DNA of 64,000 bases from Myxococcales bacterium (GCA_020633295.1 JACKDW010000006.1:334181-398180), one strand, 5' to 3'. Positions 9,716 to 64,000 are shown, counted from the stretch's first letter. Notes: generated by a model from the letters alone, not told the origin. Numbers and translations: made by a program.

Positions 9716-9816
9716 CGAGCGCGGCGCAGGCGGCCGTGAGGTCGCGGATCGCCGCGCGGGTTTTTAGCGCCCAGGCGTCGTGACGCGCCCCGCGTTTCGG
9801 GCTACGCCTCCGGGCG

Positions 9817-10431
9817 ATGGTCTACATCAGCAAGGTCTACACGAAGTTCGGCGACGGCGGCGACACGATGCTCGCCAGCGGCGACACGGTGTCGAAGGGC
9901 TCGCCGCGGGTCGCCGCCTATGGCGAGGTCGACGAGCTGAACGCGACGATCGGCCTGGTCCGCCTCGAGCTCACCCGCGACCCCGCGGTCGAGAGCTCGC
10001 CCGCGCGGGCCGAGTTCGCCGCGCGCCTCGACCTGACCCTCGCGACGATCCAGCAGGAGCTGTTTGATCTCGGGGCCGAGCTGTCGGAGCCCGGCGCGGT
10101 CGCCGGCAAGGCCCGGCTGAAGATCGAGGACGGGGACATCGAGGCGCTCGAGCGGGAGATCGACCGGCTCAACGAGCGCCTCGAGCCGCTGCGATCCTTC
10201 GTGCTCCCGGGTGGCGGACCGGTCGGCGCGGCCGCTCACCTCGCGCGCACCGTCTGTCGCCGCGCCGAGCGCCACGCCGTAGCCCTCGTGCGAGAGCACA
10301 ACGAGCCGATTCGCGGCCAGGCGCTGCGCTACCTCAACCGGCTCAGCGACTACCTCTTCGTCGTCGGCCGCGCCGCGTCCCACGAACTTGGCCACGCCGA
10401 GGTTTTGTGGGATCAGAGGCGTAAACGCTGA
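9817..10431 (+). CDS. ATP:cob(I)alamin adenosyltransferase, PduO-type (MMAB family)
   Basis: N-terminus MVYISKVYTKFGDGGDTMLASGDTVSKGSPRVAAYGEVDELNATIG matches the PduO/Cob_adeno_trans family. Confidence 0.85.
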   Translation: MVYISKVYTKFGDGGDTMLASGDTVSKGSPRVAAYGEVDELNATIGLVRLELTRDPAVESSPARAEFAARLDLTLATIQQELFDLGAELSEPGAVAGKARLKIEDGDIEALEREIDRLNERLEPLRSFVLPGGGPVGAAAHLARTVCRRAERHAVALVREHNEPIRGQALRYLNRLSDYLFVVGRAASHELGHAEVLWDQRRKR

Positions 10432-10446
10432 TTTGACCGTCACGGC

Positions 10447-10677
10447 GTGACAATGACCGAGAAGACCACCCGCAAATTCCGCTACGAGTTCCCCCCGATG
10501 GAGCCGCACTACCTCGAGGCGCCCGACCCCGAGTCCGCGGTGCGCTACATCCGGCGCGTCTACCCGCACAACCTCCACGAGGTCCTGCCGACGCTGCGCG
10601 AGATCCCGCGGTGGCCCGAGTTCTGGAAGGTCCTCGACCATCAGGGGCTCGTGATCCCGCTGCACCGCCGCGGATAG
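10447..10677 (+). CDS. Hypothetical small protein (76 aa)
   Basis: Strong GC3 codon bias. Palindrome GTCACGGCGTGAC overlaps the GTG/ATG start region. No homology recognised. Confidence 0.5.
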   Translation: MTMTEKTTRKFRYEFPPMEPHYLEAPDPESAVRYIRRVYPHNLHEVLPTLREIPRWPEFWKVLDHQGLVIPLHRRG

Positions 10678-58751: not shown

Positions 58752-60527
58752 ATGGATCCGCACATGCTTGTACACGCCCGCCGCCCCTCCCCTGCGCTTT
58801 CCCTCTCCCCTGCGCTCGCGCTCCTGCTCTGCTTCGCCGCGCTGCCCGCGTGTGACGACGGCGGGCGCGACACCGCTGGCGACAGCGGCGACGGCATCAA
58901 CGTCGGCGACAGCGGCGACAGCGGTGATGACAACATGGTCCCCGAGCCAGGCGACGACGGGGACCCCGGGGAGCCCGGAGACGACGGCGCGATCGACGAG
59001 CCGACCGAGACGCTCGACCAGATCTTCGCGGCGGCGAGCAAGGAGTTCGACGTCCCCGTCGAGATCCTCAAGGCCATCTCGCTGGTCGAGACGCAGTGGC
59101 AGATGGTCGACGGCGCCGCGGAGTTCGACGGGCAGGAGCCCGGCTACGGCGTCATGGCGCTGCGCGGCTACTGGCTCGAGGAGGGCTCGGCGCGCGCGGG
59201 CGTGACCCTCGAGGAGGCCAAGACGGACGCGCTCGCCAACGTCCGCTCGGCGGCCTCGCTGCTCTCGGCGCTCGCCGACCAGGAGGGCCTCAACGACCGC
59301 ACGAACATCGCCGGCTGGGCGCCGATCGTCGCCATCATGAGCGGCATCGAGGACATCGACGCGCAGGCCAGCTACATCCACGACGAGGTCTACACCGCGC
59401 TCGCGGCCGGCTACGCGATCGAGAACGCGTCGCTCTCGCCCGTCGTCGCGCTGCCCGACTTCCAGTTCCCGCCCAAGCCCTCGGCCTCCCCCAACTACGC
59501 GGCCGCGGTCTGGCGCCCCTCGCCGAACTTCAGCTCGCGCCCCGGCGGCAGCATCGGCGAGCCGGCGATGGTCATCATCCACACCTGCGAGGGCTCGTAC
59601 AGCGGCTGCTGGAGCTGGCTCGCCAACGGCGCGTCGGGCGTCAGCGCCCACTACGTCGTCAACAACACGGGCAGCGAGATCTCGCAGCTCGTCGACGAGA
59701 GCAAGAAGGCCTGGCACATCGCCGCCAAGTACAAGTGCAGCCTCAACAACAGCCTCGACTGCTGGCGCGACGGCTACAGCAACAACAACTTCACCATCGG
59801 CATCGAGCACGCCGGCTACGCGAACCAGAACTCCTGGGACAGCGGGCTGATCCAGGCGTCGGCGAAGCTGGTCTGCGACATCACCAAGGACCAGGGCATC
59901 CCGCGCGACAAGTACCACATCGTCGGTCACGGCCAGCTGCAGCCGTACAACCGCGTCGACCCCGGCCCGAACTGGCCGTGGACGCAGTACCTCAACCTGG
60001 TCAAGAGCTACTGTGGTGAGGGACAGGCGCCGGATCCCGATCCGCAGCCCGATCCCGATCCGCAGCCCGATCCCGATCCCGATCCGCCGAACAACGGCGA
60101 CCTCTCGATCATCATCGACAGCAACAACGCGAAGAACGGCGCCGACGCGGAGATCATCGTCTCGGGCAACTGGAACGCCGCGAACTCGACGCCGGGCTAC
60201 TACAACACCGGCTACTGGTGGCAAAACACGGACTCGCGCTCCGACGCGGCGCGCTTCCGCTTCCACCTCGACCAGGCCGCGACGCTCAAGGTCGAGGGCT
60301 GGTGGACGGCCGGCACCAACCGCTCGGACGCCGCGCCCTTCGTCATGTTCAACGCCGGCGGGACCAAGCTCGGGACCAAGTACGCGAACCAGCAGATCAA
60401 CGGCAAGCAGTGGGTCGACCTGGGCACGTACAACTTCACGGCCGGCTGGAACGAGGTCGATCTCTCGATCTGGGCCGCGGCTGGCTCGGTCGTGATCGCG
60501 GACGCCGTCCGCGTGCGCACGCCGTGA
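58752..60527 (+). CDS. N-acetylmuramoyl-L-alanine amidase (Amidase_2/PGRP domain) lipoprotein with (PD)n linker and C-terminal beta-rich domain
   Basis: Lipobox ALPACDD. Asp/Gly-rich N-terminus. Amidase_2 motifs SAHYVV, GIEHAG, HGQL. Linker PDPDPQPDPDPQPDPDPDP. Confidence 0.75.
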   Translation: MDPHMLVHARRPSPALSLSPALALLLCFAALPACDDGGRDTAGDSGDGINVGDSGDSGDDNMVPEPGDDGDPGEPGDDGAIDEPTETLDQIFAAASKEFDVPVEILKAISLVETQWQMVDGAAEFDGQEPGYGVMALRGYWLEEGSARAGVTLEEAKTDALANVRSAASLLSALADQEGLNDRTNIAGWAPIVAIMSGIEDIDAQASYIHDEVYTALAAGYAIENASLSPVVALPDFQFPPKPSASPNYAAAVWRPSPNFSSRPGGSIGEPAMVIIHTCEGSYSGCWSWLANGASGVSAHYVVNNTGSEISQLVDESKKAWHIAAKYKCSLNNSLDCWRDGYSNNNFTIGIEHAGYANQNSWDSGLIQASAKLVCDITKDQGIPRDKYHIVGHGQLQPYNRVDPGPNWPWTQYLNLVKSYCGEGQAPDPDPQPDPDPQPDPDPDPPNNGDLSIIIDSNNAKNGADAEIIVSGNWNAANSTPGYYNTGYWWQNTDSRSDAARFRFHLDQAATLKVEGWWTAGTNRSDAAPFVMFNAGGTKLGTKYANQQINGKQWVDLGTYNFTAGWNEVDLSIWAAAGSVVIADAVRVRTP

Positions 60528-61690
60528 GACGCTCCCCGCGACTCGCTCGCAGCGCGTCGGCGATCCTCGCCGGCGCGTTGCTCGTTGGATGCCAGGGCGA
60601 CGCGACGCCGCGTGAGGCCCCGGCGCCCGCGCCGGCGGCAGGCCCGGTGACCGAGACGCCGCGCGCCGCGACGGAGTCCCCTTGGTGCGGCGTGATCGCG
60701 TTCGTCTCCGAGCGCGACGGCAACCCGGAGATCTACGCGCTGCGGCCAGACGGCGCGCCCGCGCGGCTCACCGAGCATCCGGCCGGGGACTTCGTCACGC
60801 CGCTCGAGGCGCCGGTCGACGGCGCGCGCGCGCTCGTGATGATCCGCGCCGAGGAGCTCCCGGGCGGCGCGCATCGCGAGCGCCTCGGGCTCCTGTCCCT
60901 CGAGGCTGGTGAACAGCCGCGCTTCATCGGTCCGCCGAGCGGCCGGCTGCGCAACCCGAGCGCCGGGCCGGGCGGCGCGTGGCTCGTGCTCGAGAGCGAC
61001 GCCCACAGCTTTCGCGACCTGTACCGCGTCGAGCTGACGGGGGCCTCCGAGGGGCGCGCGCCGCTGCGGCTGACCGACAACCTCGAGGGCAACTTCGAAC
61101 CTGCGGTCTCGCCCGACGGGCAGCGGATCGCGTTCGTCTCGAGCCGCGACGGCGACGCCGAGCTGTACCTCATGCAGGCCGACGGCTCGCGACCGCATCG
61201 CCTGACCAATAGGCCAGGTGATGACACCGCGCCGAGCTGGTCTCCCGACGGGCGCGCGCTCGCGTTCACGCGCGCCGACGCGGACGGCTCGCGCGTGTTC
61301 CTGCTCGCCCTCGAGGGCGCGGACGTGGCCGGTGAGCCACGTCCGCTGCGGTCCAGCGCCCCCGCCCGCGGTGAGGATCGCGACGTCAGCTGGTCGCCCG
61401 ACGGCGCCCGGATCGCGCTGAGCGAGGCGGCCCCGGGGCGCGCGGAGGTCGTCGTCTTCGACGTCGCGACCGGCGCCGCGCTGCGCCGCTCGGGCGCGCT
61501 CAAGATCGACGAGCAGCCGGCCTGGGCGCCGCGCGGCCCGTGGATCGCGTTCGTCTCCGATCGCGAGGGCGACGCCGAGCTGTTTCGCCTGAACGTTGAG
61601 ACTGGCGAGATCGCGCGGCTGACCCGTTCGCCAGGCGCGGACTGGCTGCCGCGCTGGCTCCCGGGTCCCGACTGCGCGGCGCCGGCGTAG
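60524..61690 (+). CDS. TolB-like periplasmic beta-propeller lipoprotein (PD40/WD40-like repeats)
   Basis: GTG start overlapping the amidase stop (GTGA). Lipobox LLVGCQG. Repeated ...PDG..IAF.S.RDG..EL. PD40 motifs. Confidence 0.75.
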   Translation: MRRSPRLARSASAILAGALLVGCQGDATPREAPAPAPAAGPVTETPRAATESPWCGVIAFVSERDGNPEIYALRPDGAPARLTEHPAGDFVTPLEAPVDGARALVMIRAEELPGGAHRERLGLLSLEAGEQPRFIGPPSGRLRNPSAGPGGAWLVLESDAHSFRDLYRVELTGASEGRAPLRLTDNLEGNFEPAVSPDGQRIAFVSSRDGDAELYLMQADGSRPHRLTNRPGDDTAPSWSPDGRALAFTRADADGSRVFLLALEGADVAGEPRPLRSSAPARGEDRDVSWSPDGARIALSEAAPGRAEVVVFDVATGAALRRSGALKIDEQPAWAPRGPWIAFVSDREGDAELFRLNVETGEIARLTRSPGADWLPRWLPGPDCAAPA

Positions 61691-61756
61691 TCAAGCGCGC
61701 GCGTCCACGGGATACTGAGGCGCGCGCGTCATGCGAGCGCGCCGGGAGAGAGACGG

Positions 61757-62533
61757 ATGCGAAGCTCACGATCGATTGCTGGGGCCCTGATGACCACCGC
61801 CGCGACCATCGGGCTCGTCACGCTGGGCGCCTGCGGGCAGCCCGCGGAGCGCGACGGTCACGGCGGCGACTACGGCCGGGCCTCGATGGGCGGCCCGGGG
61901 AGCGCGACAGGGCCCAAGGGAAAGGTCGCGGCCGAGCCGATCTCGTGGCTCGTGTCCTTCAACCGCCTGCACACGGCCGACAAGCTCGAGCAGGCGCTGA
62001 ACAAGAAGCCCGGGCAATTCAGCTCCATCGACCTCGACAACGACGGCATCGTCGATCGCCTGACGGTCCGCAAGCTCGACCACGACGGCGGGCCCGCCTT
62101 CGAGCTGACCGCGCGCGCGAGCGGGGGCAAGCAGCAGGTGGTCTCGACGCTGCTGTTTGACGACTCGTGGGACTTCCTCGGCAGCTACAACGGCGCGATG
62201 CCCGGGGCGCCGCCGCTGCCTGCGGTCGCGGCCGCGCCAGCGGCCCCCCCCGCGGTCGCGGCCGCCCCGCCCCTGTCGCCGCCCCGCCCGCGGCTGCGGC
62301 CCGGCTGTCGCCGCGGCGCCGACGCTCGGGAGCAGCCGCGACCACTCGAAGGACCTCGCCATGGAGCCCATCTCGTGGCTCGTGCGCTTCAACAAGCTGC
62401 ACAGCGCGTCGGCGATCGAGCAGGCGATCAACGGCACGCCCGGCCAGTTCAGCAAGGTCGACACCAACACCGACGGCACGCCGGACTACATCGCGGTGGC
62501 CGAGAAGTCGCGGGACGACGGCCGCGCCTTTGA
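61757..62533 (+). CDS. Lipoprotein carrying copy 1 of a ~90-aa domain; the reading frame runs into an aberrant Arg-rich tail beyond the Pro/Ala linker (probable frameshift)
   Basis: Lipobox LVTLGACG. Domain EPISWLVSFNRLHTADKLEQALNKKPGQFSSIDLDNDG...LLFDDSWDFLGSYNG, then (PA)-rich linker and a C8 homopolymer at ~62244-62251. Confidence 0.45.
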   Translation: MRSSRSIAGALMTTAATIGLVTLGACGQPAERDGHGGDYGRASMGGPGSATGPKGKVAAEPISWLVSFNRLHTADKLEQALNKKPGQFSSIDLDNDGIVDRLTVRKLDHDGGPAFELTARASGGKQQVVSTLLFDDSWDFLGSYNGAMPGAPPLPAVAAAPAAPPAVAAAPPLSPPRPRLRPGCRRGADAREQPRPLEGPRHGAHLVARALQQAAQRVGDRAGDQRHARPVQQGRHQHRRHAGLHRGGREVAGRRPRL

Positions 62534-62639
62534 GCTGCGCGCCAAGGCCGACAAGGGCGACGGCGTGGTCGTCGCGACCATGCTGTTCGACGACTCCTGG
62601 TCGCTCGTCGGCTGGTACAACGGCGTCGCGCCGCGCTGA
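62361..62639 (+). CDS. Second copy of the same ~90-aa domain in the +1 frame (separate ORF or the frameshifted C-terminal half of the preceding gene)
   Basis: MEPISWLVRFNKLHSASAIEQAINGTPGQFSKVDTNTDG...MLFDDSWSLVGWYNG is about 50% identical to copy 1 and begins exactly at the domain boundary, with no signal peptide. Confidence 0.4.
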   Translation: MEPISWLVRFNKLHSASAIEQAINGTPGQFSKVDTNTDGTPDYIAVAEKSRDDGRAFELRAKADKGDGVVVATMLFDDSWSLVGWYNGVAPR

Positions 62640-62661
62640 GGACGACCGAGGCCCGACGCGC

Positions 62662-63984
62662 TCACGCGCGCGGTCGACCGCTCGCCGCCCGACGCTCGCG
62701 CGCGCGGCGGTCCTGGGCCCGCGCGCGCCGGACGACCTCCGGGGGCTTGCCGAGGAAGAACGCGGCCGAGGGCACCCGGACCTCGGCGGCGACGCGACGC
62801 TGTCGCCAGCGGACGACGACCGGGGTCATCGCGGCGCCGAACATGAAGCCGCCGATGTGCGCGTACCAGGCGAAGTCGACCTCGCTCGAGAACGCGGCCA
62901 TCACGACCTGGCAGCCGATCCAGATGAGGACGTAGACCCAGACGGGGATCTTGACCTGGACGAAGATGAACGGGACGGTCTGCAGCAGGCGCGCGCGCGG
63001 GAACAGCCACAGGTAGGCCGCGAGCACGCCGGCGATCGCCCCGGACGCGCCGATCACCGGCGGGGACCCGGGGCTCGCGAGCAGGATCTGCAAGAGCGCG
63101 CCCGTCATGGCCGCGCCGAGCAGCAGCAGCGAGTAGCGCAGGCGCCCGAACAGGTGCTCGACGTTGTCGCCGAAGACGTAGAGGAAGTAGAGGTTGACGA
63201 GCAGGTGGGCCGCGTCGGCGTGGAACCACACGTGCGTCAGCGCCGTGTAGAGCAGCCGCGGATCGCTGCGGACCTCGGCGCCGACCAGCGCCCAGTCGCG
63301 CGCGTAGAAGATCCCGAACACCGAGAGCTGGTAGAGCACGAGCAGCGCGCCGCCGAAGATGTAGACGACCCACGGGGTCCCGCGCGCCGGGTTCTCGACC
63401 TCGACGGGGAGCTGCGTGAGCAGCTGCGCCGCCCAGATGAAGCCGCGCTTGGCGAGCTTCAGGCTGCGCTCCTCCTGGCCCTCGCGCGTCGACGAGCCGG
63501 CGAGCTCGCGGCGCTCGTCGCCGTCGAGCCAGAGCCCGCGGCAGCGCGGGCAGCGATCGACCGGCGTGCGCAGCAGCCCGGGCAGCGCGTGCTCGTTCAT
63601 GAATCCATGTCCTCTGGGACACATGCGATGGGCCGAGCGCCCCATCAGCGTCTTCAGCAGCCCCGGGTCGACCTCGGCGTCGCCGAGCGTGTCGAGCTCG
63701 CCCTGGTCGAACCACACGCCGAAGCACACGGGGCACGCGTCGAGCTCGAGCGTGCCCTCGGGCAGCGCGTCGGCGTCCTTGAGCTGCCGCCAGCGCCCGC
63801 GCGCGTCGCGATGCAGGTAGATCGGCACGAGCTCGTGCAGGCTGCACGCGGGGCACTGCGCCGAGAGCGTGTCGCGGCCGTCTCGGTTGACGTCCGCGCC
63901 GCGCGTCGCCGCGTTCACGCGCGGCGGTCCTGCTCGCGCGTCTCGCTCGTCTCGCTCGTCCTGCTCGGCTCGCTCGTCGCCCAC
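62662..63984 (-). CDS. Rhomboid-family intramembrane serine protease with two N-terminal zinc-ribbon (zf-TFIIB-like) domains
   Basis: Two CPxC...CPxC ribbons (CPACS...CPVCF; CPRGH...CPRCRGLWLD). Rhomboid GASGAIAG (GxSG) and catalytic His in HIGGF. Six TM helices. Confidence 0.8.
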   Translation of the reverse strand: MGDERAEQDERDERDARAGPPRVNAATRGADVNRDGRDTLSAQCPACSLHELVPIYLHRDARGRWRQLKDADALPEGTLELDACPVCFGVWFDQGELDTLGDAEVDPGLLKTLMGRSAHRMCPRGHGFMNEHALPGLLRTPVDRCPRCRGLWLDGDERRELAGSSTREGQEERSLKLAKRGFIWAAQLLTQLPVEVENPARGTPWVVYIFGGALLVLYQLSVFGIFYARDWALVGAEVRSDPRLLYTALTHVWFHADAAHLLVNLYFLYVFGDNVEHLFGRLRYSLLLLGAAMTGALLQILLASPGSPPVIGASGAIAGVLAAYLWLFPRARLLQTVPFIFVQVKIPVWVYVLIWIGCQVVMAAFSSEVDFAWYAHIGGFMFGAAMTPVVVRWRQRRVAAEVRVPSAAFFLGKPPEVVRRARAQDRRARERRAASGRPRA

Positions 63985-64000
63985 GTCTCGCTCGAGGTTC

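Follow-up and report, generated by a model that had tools for sequence, protein, structure and literature searches.

A lipoprotein gene of a Myxococcales bacterium that changes frame in its Pro/Ala-rich linker: one two-domain gene, probably split by assembly error

Introduction

The stretch analyzed here, called the window, is 64,000 nt of DNA from a Myxococcales bacterium (GCA_020633295.1, JACKDW010000006.1:334181-398180), part of a metagenome-assembled genome (MAG). Close to its end, at 61757-62639, two copies of a domain of about 90 amino acids (aa) stand in tandem; the first belongs to an open reading frame (ORF) that begins like a lipoprotein, and the second continues in a different frame. 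A first-pass annotation of the locus offered two explanations, namely one two-domain lipoprotein disrupted by a slipped-strand insertion at a run of eight cytosines (C8), or a recent duplication that had created a leaderless second ORF. The locus raises the question of whether it holds one gene or two and, if one, where its frame is broken and whether the organism or the assembly broke it.

The comparisons below point to a single gene whose frame changes at two short C runs in the linker between the domains, and the most probable cause is error in the assembled sequence. Nothing in the analysis suggests an unusual mechanism: the feature is an ordinary gene.

Gene architecture

The main parts of the locus, with frames counted from the start of the first ORF (ORF1), are the following.

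61757-62533, plus strand: ORF1 as assembled, comprising signal peptide, lipobox, copy 1, Pro/Ala linker and an out-of-frame Arg-rich tail of about 80 aa that overlaps copy 2
61757-61834, plus strand: lipoprotein signal peptide with the lipobox L-G-A-C (L23-G24-A25-C26) at its end, read from the sequence
about 61916-62194, plus strand: domain copy 1 (KGKVAAEPISWLVSFNRLH...DDSWDFLGSYNG; also EPISWLVSFNRLH...GSYNG), frame 0
62195-62342, plus strand: Pro/Ala-rich interdomain linker (about 40 aa), 88% GC, with the reading in frame 0 as far as about 62265, in frame 2 from there to about 62301, and in frame 1 beyond
62343-62636, plus strand: domain copy 2 with a short C-terminal tail (HSKDLAMEPISWLVRFNKLH...DDSWSLVGWYNGVAPR), frame +1, intact, stop codon at 62637-62639
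62361-62639, plus strand: 92-aa coding sequence MCB9752581.1 (hypothetical protein H6713_21720), starting at an internal conserved Met with AAGGA 7 nt upstream

Read directly from the plus strand, ORF1 encodes 258 aa and starts MRSSRSIAGALMTTAATIGLVTLGAC. Its N-terminus conforms to the lipobox pattern [LVI][ASTVI][GAS]C of signal peptidase II substrates, and the product is a predicted lipoprotein; Cys26 and the G-x-PAER motif that ensues are invariant across a four-protein alignment. The second domain proper (EPISWLVRFNKLH...GWYNG) extends over about 62343-62624. The two copies are identical at 50 of 93 residues (54%, E=1e-36), and their DNA forms direct repeats that are 73-78% identical.

Every element of the tandem domain pair described in the first-pass annotation was recovered, including the frameshift that splits it. 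The repeats lie 430 nt apart from start to start, a spacing of 3n+1, which agrees with the placement of copy 2 in the +1 frame, ahead of a clean stop. A profile of GC (guanine plus cytosine) content at third codon positions (GC3) shows the coding signal of frame 0 being lost at about 62290-62300, with frame +1 at a GC3 of about 1.0 from about 62300 on. Past the linker, frame 0 gives an Arg-rich tail to a stop at 62531-62533, the nonsense tail of that annotation. Copy 2 bears no mark of decay: it is free of stops, its GC3 is about 1.0, and every residue invariant in the family is present.

Orthologs

Both domain copies occur in one ORF in P0001 (304 aa), which matches the provisionally repaired window protein at 66% identity and 100% coverage. 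The same search, which also returned one-domain relatives, found both domains in a single ORF in P0002 (287 aa) and P0003 (282 aa); a fourth two-domain single-ORF protein, P0011 (242 aa, N-terminally cut), came from an exhaustive profile search. Best-segment identity of these four to the repaired window protein is 50-66%; over the full MAFFT alignment, P0001, P0002 and P0003 are 56-76% identical to it. The check proposed at the outset, whether orthologs encode a single two-domain protein, is thus answered in the affirmative by all four. Scans of genome and metagenome contigs returned only the 66%-identical ortholog of P0001's genome and one-domain homologs at 41-50% identity.

Gene order has been kept as well. 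P0001 is encoded in the Polyangia MAG Co_bin.371 (JAUIKS010000008), where a 591-aa protein, a PD40 protein, the lipoprotein and a convergent rhomboid follow one another as in the window; the neighbors are 78% (591-aa protein), 65% (PD40 beta-propeller) and 86% (rhomboid protease) identical to their window counterparts. At the P0003 locus (KC636_13725) a convergent rhomboid gene likewise lies downstream.

Copy 1 of the window is 86% identical to copy 1 of P0001, and copy 2 is 81-82% identical to copy 2 of P0001 versus 52-54% to copy 1 sequences. Because each copy groups with its counterpart in the orthologs (81% versus 52-54%), the duplication is, on these identities, old and predates the divergence of the four ortholog lineages. 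The nonsynonymous distance (dN) to the ortholog is 0.128 for copy 2 versus 0.111 for copy 1; its ratio to the synonymous distance (dN/dS) was also computed and is weakly informative, as synonymous sites are constrained by a GC3 of about 1.0.

The sequence around the putative second start tells the same story. A motif, DHSK(D/G)(L/I)A(M/I), precedes the internal ATG and is conserved inside the orthologs; the window residues SSRDHSKDLAM, before and at this ATG, align with internal TKDHSKDIAM and similar sequences, and the Met encoded at 62361 is a conserved internal residue. The proposal that a leaderless second ORF arose by recent duplication fails on both counts: the copies are only 54% identical, and what precedes the internal ATG is coding sequence that the orthologs conserve. 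The window gene has both copies, the linker and the DHSK motif in the order seen in this ortholog group, as well as conserved neighbors, and lacks only the group's single uninterrupted frame. Taken together, the orthologs show that the ancestral state is one predicted two-domain lipoprotein.

The linker and the sibling contigs

Against a GC content of 70.6% for the window as a whole, the linker is its most GC-rich 150 nt (88% GC, 99.98th percentile). Within it lie the following sites.

62222-62235 and 62252-62265, plus strand: two copies of gcggtcgcggccgc, 30 nt apart and in frame, each encoding AVAAA in the linker
62244-62251, plus strand: C8 homopolymer forming Pro-Pro codons, not the site of the frameshift; C5 in a sibling contig, which is 3 nt shorter here and stays in frame
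62265-62268, plus strand: frameshift site 1, a C4 run that lacks one C relative to the C5 of the sibling contig and shifts the reading from frame 0 to frame 2
62300-62302, plus strand: frameshift site 2, a C3 run that lacks one C relative to the C4 of the sibling contig and shifts the reading from frame 2 to frame 1

The C8 run and the two repeat copies, which had already been remarked on in the (PA)-rich linker, were located at 62244-62251 and from 62222 and 62252, respectively. Nowhere else in the window is there a homopolymer as long as C8, yet a run of this length is statistically unremarkable: a first-order Markov model leads one to expect 1.6 C or G runs of at least 8 nt in 64 kb, and 1 is observed. 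C runs occur in such linkers because Pro (CCC, CCG) and Ala (GCC) codons are written in a 70% GC genome. The Co_bin.371 ortholog contains one C9 run and five C4-C5 runs, all in frame, and in the DNA alignment with this ortholog the C8 run stands opposite C5AC4 with no gap.

The GC3 profile is blind within the linker, where all three codon positions are 80-100% GC, so possible repairs of the frame were enumerated instead. Whichever single base is removed, two or more Arg or Cys residues remain in the linker. The linkers of the closest orthologs, P0001 and P0002, and of the sibling contig contain neither residue; in P0003, two Arg residues lie close to copy 2. A clean linker (...PAVAAAPAPVAAPPAAAAPAVAAAPTLGSSRDHSK), along a path from frame 0 to 2 to 1, results when one C is added at 62265-62274 and another at 62297-62303, and the ungapped DNA alignment of C8 with the Co_bin.371 ortholog is in keeping with this. 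This two-site repair is the only one that gives a linker free of Arg and Cys, and it was predicted from the window sequence alone before the sibling contig was retrieved. A single-base repair at the C8 run was considered and rejected; it would place RSRPPRPCRRPARGCG in the linker, and the C5 found there in the sibling contig lends it no support.

Sibling contigs were reached through the cluster (at least 90% identity) of the neighboring PD40 protein, MCB9752580.1, in Logan assemblies. The contig from run SRR12358675 (L028) spans window positions 59911-62310 and is 99.58% identical over 2,398 nt, and the contig from run SRR12358676 (L029) spans 59911-62178 at 99.82% identity. They share the same four single-nucleotide polymorphisms (SNPs) relative to the window, without a gap over 59911-62243, and by this common pattern represent a sibling strain.

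Within the linker L028 departs from the window in four ways: it has C5 for C8 (62244-62246 absent), one additional C in 62265-62268, the substitution T62274C, and one additional C in 62300-62302. Its only three gaps relative to the window all fall in the linker. The ORF of L028, MRSS...GAMPGAPPLPAVAAAPAAPAVAAAPAPVAAPPAAAAPAV, stays in one frame to the end of the contig, and its linker (...PAVAAAPAAPAVAAAPAPVAAPPAAAAPAV) is read in that single frame. The final codons, CCG GCT GTC, are in phase with frame +1 of the window and lead into copy 2. L028 also carries both copies of gcggtcgcggccgc.

On the far side of the linker, a contig of another MAG (L030, JAGQIM010000042) spans 62546-64000 at 99.93% identity, with 1 mismatch and no gap. 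In all, about 3.7 kb of compared flanks are free of indels, and between these assemblies three run-length differences within 60 nt of linker stand against none in the flanks. Judged by the alignment with L028, the loss of one C in 62265-62268 and of another in 62300-62302 breaks the frame, and the C8 run does not. Of the first-pass explanation, a two-domain lipoprotein disrupted in its linker is borne out by the orthologs and by L028; the slipped-strand insertion at C8 is contradicted by the C5 run of L028, which is in frame.

The ends of the three contigs are a separate observation. L029, L028 and L030 end at 62178, 62310 and 62546, respectively, so that three independent short-contig assemblies break inside the same gene. 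These breaks suggest coverage dropout or graph tangles in the linker of about 90% GC and in the duplicated domain, and poor short-read coverage just where polishing would have been needed.

Cause of the frameshift

On the reading that we favor, the locus is a single gene for a predicted secreted lipoprotein, with a signal peptide, a lipobox and two paralogous domains of about 90 aa joined by some 40 aa of Pro/Ala linker. In the assembled sequence two short C runs of this linker are each one base shorter than in the 99.6%-identical sibling, which carries the reading from frame 0 to 2 to 1 and produces an apparent 258-aa ORF with a nonsense tail and a leaderless 92-aa ORF. The shortfall would have arisen as a consensus or assembly error of the MAG in its most GC-rich and C-run-dense stretch, and the organism would then make the intact two-domain protein. 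That the cause is such an error, in the form of two single-C undercalls, we consider probable, and we infer that the missing bases are errors rather than mutations. The size of the source contig, 514,895 bp at 70% GC, hints that it was assembled from long reads. Among the causes that the first-pass annotation had listed, sequencing or consensus error and pseudogene formation both stay in contention, and phase variation is poorly supported, the C4 and C3 runs being too short for it.

No further frameshift was detected in the 64 kb by a GC3 frame scan of all plus-strand switches and a coarser open-frame survey of both strands. Among the switches checked, only that of the lipoprotein locus joins two frames of one strand with no stop codon at the junction. 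One further candidate, an apparent in-frame stop between the open frames 9784-10431 and 10432-10677, proved on inspection to be two ordinary adjacent genes.

Several observations weigh against an assembly error. The sibling contigs are not the same DNA as the window; with four shared SNPs in 2.3 kb, the linker differences could be real differences between strains. The remainder of the window appears well polished, and errors are not widespread in it. The 3-nt difference at C8 versus C5 is atypical of long-read undercalling. Finally, the differences fall in the last 70 nt of contig L028, although chance errors at a contig end are unlikely to have created a clean single frame that joins both domains.

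The strongest alternative is that the gene is a genuine and recent strain-specific pseudogene, both single-C deletions being real. The cell would then make a domain-1 lipoprotein with a nonsense tail, and domain 2 would be either silent or translated weakly from the internal ATG as a product that lacks a signal peptide. Real SNPs common to two independent runs separate the MAG from the sibling contigs and speak for distinct strains, and the linker is repetitive and may evolve fast, given the additional in-frame 3-nt difference and SNP. The lack of a protein accession for ORF1 would also fit either a pseudogene flag or the absence of a gene call. This alternative requires, however, two independent frameshifts within 35 nt, while neither the 300 nt of copy 2 nor the roughly 3.7 kb of flanks contains any indel. 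At four SNPs per 2.3 kb of flank, about 0.1 substitutions would be expected per 60 nt, and far fewer indels, whereas three indels are seen. As for signs of decay, the gene carries two frameshifts 35 nt apart, but no relaxation of constraint is seen in copy 2, which is stop-free and keeps all invariant residues, with a GC3 of about 1.0 and a dN near that of copy 1. C3-C5 runs are not known to be hypermutable, which also counts against a pseudogene. We regard it as unlikely, though it deserves more weight than the remaining alternatives.

The linker might instead be phase variable, slipped-strand changes in its C runs toggling the product between a two-domain and a one-domain lipoprotein. Three C runs do vary in length between near-identical sequences, the longest homopolymer of the window is among them, and a change from C8 to C7 would open the frame through copy 2. 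The predicted product is a surface or periplasmic lipoprotein, a class that is often phase variable in other bacteria. The runs that break the frame are, however, just 3-4 bases long, too short for classical contingency tracts, and the difference between C8 and C5 is in frame. A C8 run lies within the chance expectation of 1.6, and the Co_bin.371 ortholog keeps its C9 and its five C4-C5 runs in frame. A C7 reading would also put RSRPPRPCRRPARGCG into a linker that is otherwise without Arg and Cys in P0001, P0002 and L028. No long tract whose change by one unit toggles the native frame was found, and phase variation is highly improbable here. Equally remote is a hypervariable linker in which changes of run length, seen as C8/C5, C4/C5 and C3/C4 between genomes otherwise 99.6-99.8% identical, switch the product between its two-domain and one-domain forms. 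If this were true, a myxobacterium would have a contingency locus made up of several short runs in place of one long tract.

It is scarcely credible that the locus holds two separate genes, one for a one-domain lipoprotein and the other, arisen by duplication, for a leaderless 92-aa protein translated on its own. The ATG at 62361 does have AAGGA 7 nt upstream, and the 92-aa product is listed as a protein in GenBank. Both the Met and the S-K-D codons of which AAGGA is part, however, encode conserved internal residues of single-ORF orthologs. The first frame-0 stop after domain 1 comes only at 62531, within copy 2, and the sibling contig L028 reads through in one frame. A scan of 61500-62800 found no promoter- or terminator-like site, including between the copies. 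All other retrieved family members that begin with their N-terminus bear a signal peptide or membrane anchor, and the duplication is older than the divergence of the four orthologs.

The GenBank entry itself gives the PD40 protein, the 92-aa ORF and the rhomboid the accessions MCB9752580.1, MCB9752581.1 and MCB9752582.1. The numbering leaves no gap, so no protein product is recorded for the first half of the gene. Exact look-ups of the 258-aa, 92-aa, 160-aa and 591-aa products of the window matched no recorded contig. The protein collection held no entry with the ORF1 sequence or with its M12 or M44 starts, and a literature search under the run, assembly and locus-tag identifiers returned nothing relevant.

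Programmed ribosomal frameshifting or transcriptional slippage can be set aside, since the four orthologs and the sibling contig are single-frame and two separate -1 steps would be needed, and inspection by eye only revealed no canonical X XXY YYZ heptamer at 62265 or 62300.

For annotation, the correct model of the locus is one lipoprotein of about 295 aa in place of the separate 92-aa hypothetical protein MCB9752581.1. The case is an example of how a MAG consensus can fail in C-run-dense Pro/Ala linkers at about 90% GC, and it shows that such failures can be resolved without recourse to reads when a near-identical strain has been assembled independently. An uncharacterized family without a Pfam or NCBIfam model is also of minor interest in itself.

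Protein family and neighboring genes

No Pfam family matched either half of the window protein at E <= 1. NCBIfam gave nothing for window copy 2 or for the family member P0005, and matches far below cutoff, attributable to chance, for P0001 and P0004. A profile search of 1.84 billion representatives returned about 15 clusters (at 50% identity) at E <= 1e-10, and the family members that are named or placed belong to the Myxococcota (Polyangia, Myxococcales, Nannocystis). Weaker profile matches are multi-repeat proteins aligned through a PGQFSxVDxDxDGxxD segment at profile positions of about 30-70. The domain has been duplicated in one lineage and is elsewhere single, with other C-terminal extensions.

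AlphaFold2 models the domain as two helices, a loop and a four-stranded antiparallel sheet, with a predicted local distance difference test score (pLDDT) of 80-90 for copy 1 and, for the domain model, a pLDDT of 88 and a predicted template modeling score (pTM) of 0.79. A Foldseek search of the two-domain model against the Protein Data Bank (PDB) gave nothing at E <= 0.001 and no convincing neighbor among solved structures. This is an uncharacterized alpha+beta lipoprotein domain with a DxDxDG-type loop, and the loop may bind calcium.

Three further observations concern relatives of the window protein. P0027 (72 aa) departs from the conserved domain after GQFSK into an Arg/Ser-rich tail, ending ...LNRKPGQFSKSCPPSAASTRSACSSRRSSF, and looks like a second frameshifted or truncated member of the family, from a different assembly. 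P0004 and P0007 (L004; Nannocystis loci L005-L012) are one-domain Nannocystaceae relatives with a prefix of the copy-2 type, DHSKxLAMTPISWLV, followed by a Pro/Ala linker and an extra C-terminal helical region (...AKQAYLQASQSFHASNSDEALEIMAKTAC...). Their loci have no adjoining rhomboid gene within 4 kb.

In the window, the stop codons of the lipoprotein gene (to 62639) and of the convergent rhomboid gene (62662-63984, minus strand) are separated by only 22 nt, a gap (62639-62662) in which no terminator-like hairpin was seen. The rhomboid has an N-terminal zinc-ribbon-like region, according to Pfam searches of its orthologs, and the pairing of lipoprotein and rhomboid is kept in Co_bin.371 and at the P0003 locus. 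The 591-aa protein encoded upstream (58752-60527) contains an Asp/Pro-rich low-complexity region, PDPDPQPDPDPQPDPDPDPP, and motifs resembling those of cell-wall amidases, seen by eye only.

Comparison with known systems

The closest counterparts of the window gene are the orthologous two-domain lipoproteins, all annotated as hypothetical. It resembles them in having a lipobox, copy 1, a Pro/Ala- or Ser-rich linker, the DHSK motif and copy 2, and differs from them in being out of frame in the linker by a net +1.

FG-GAP/VCBS repeats (PF01839, PF13517) recall the DxDxDG loop of the window family, and P0002 has a faint precomputed match to PF01839. The likeness stops at the lack of any Pfam match at E <= 1 and at the predicted fold, which combines helices with a sheet and is not a beta-propeller blade.

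The poly-C and poly-G contingency loci of Neisseria, Haemophilus and Campylobacter comprise phase-variable surface lipoprotein genes. The present locus is like them a lipoprotein gene with coding C runs whose lengths differ between close relatives. Unlike theirs, the runs that break its frame are 3-4 nt and not at least 7 nt long, the C8 difference is in frame, and the orthologs keep similar runs in frame.

Genes split by consensus errors in homopolymer length are a known artifact of long-read, hybrid or metagenome assemblies. The window gene differs from such cases in that one of its differences is a 3-nt expansion and the comparison sequence comes from a sibling strain. It shares with them one-base differences in short C runs, extreme GC content, clean flanks and an intact downstream half, together with an annotation that splits the gene into two ORFs and an independent assembly of a near-identical strain in which the frame is kept.
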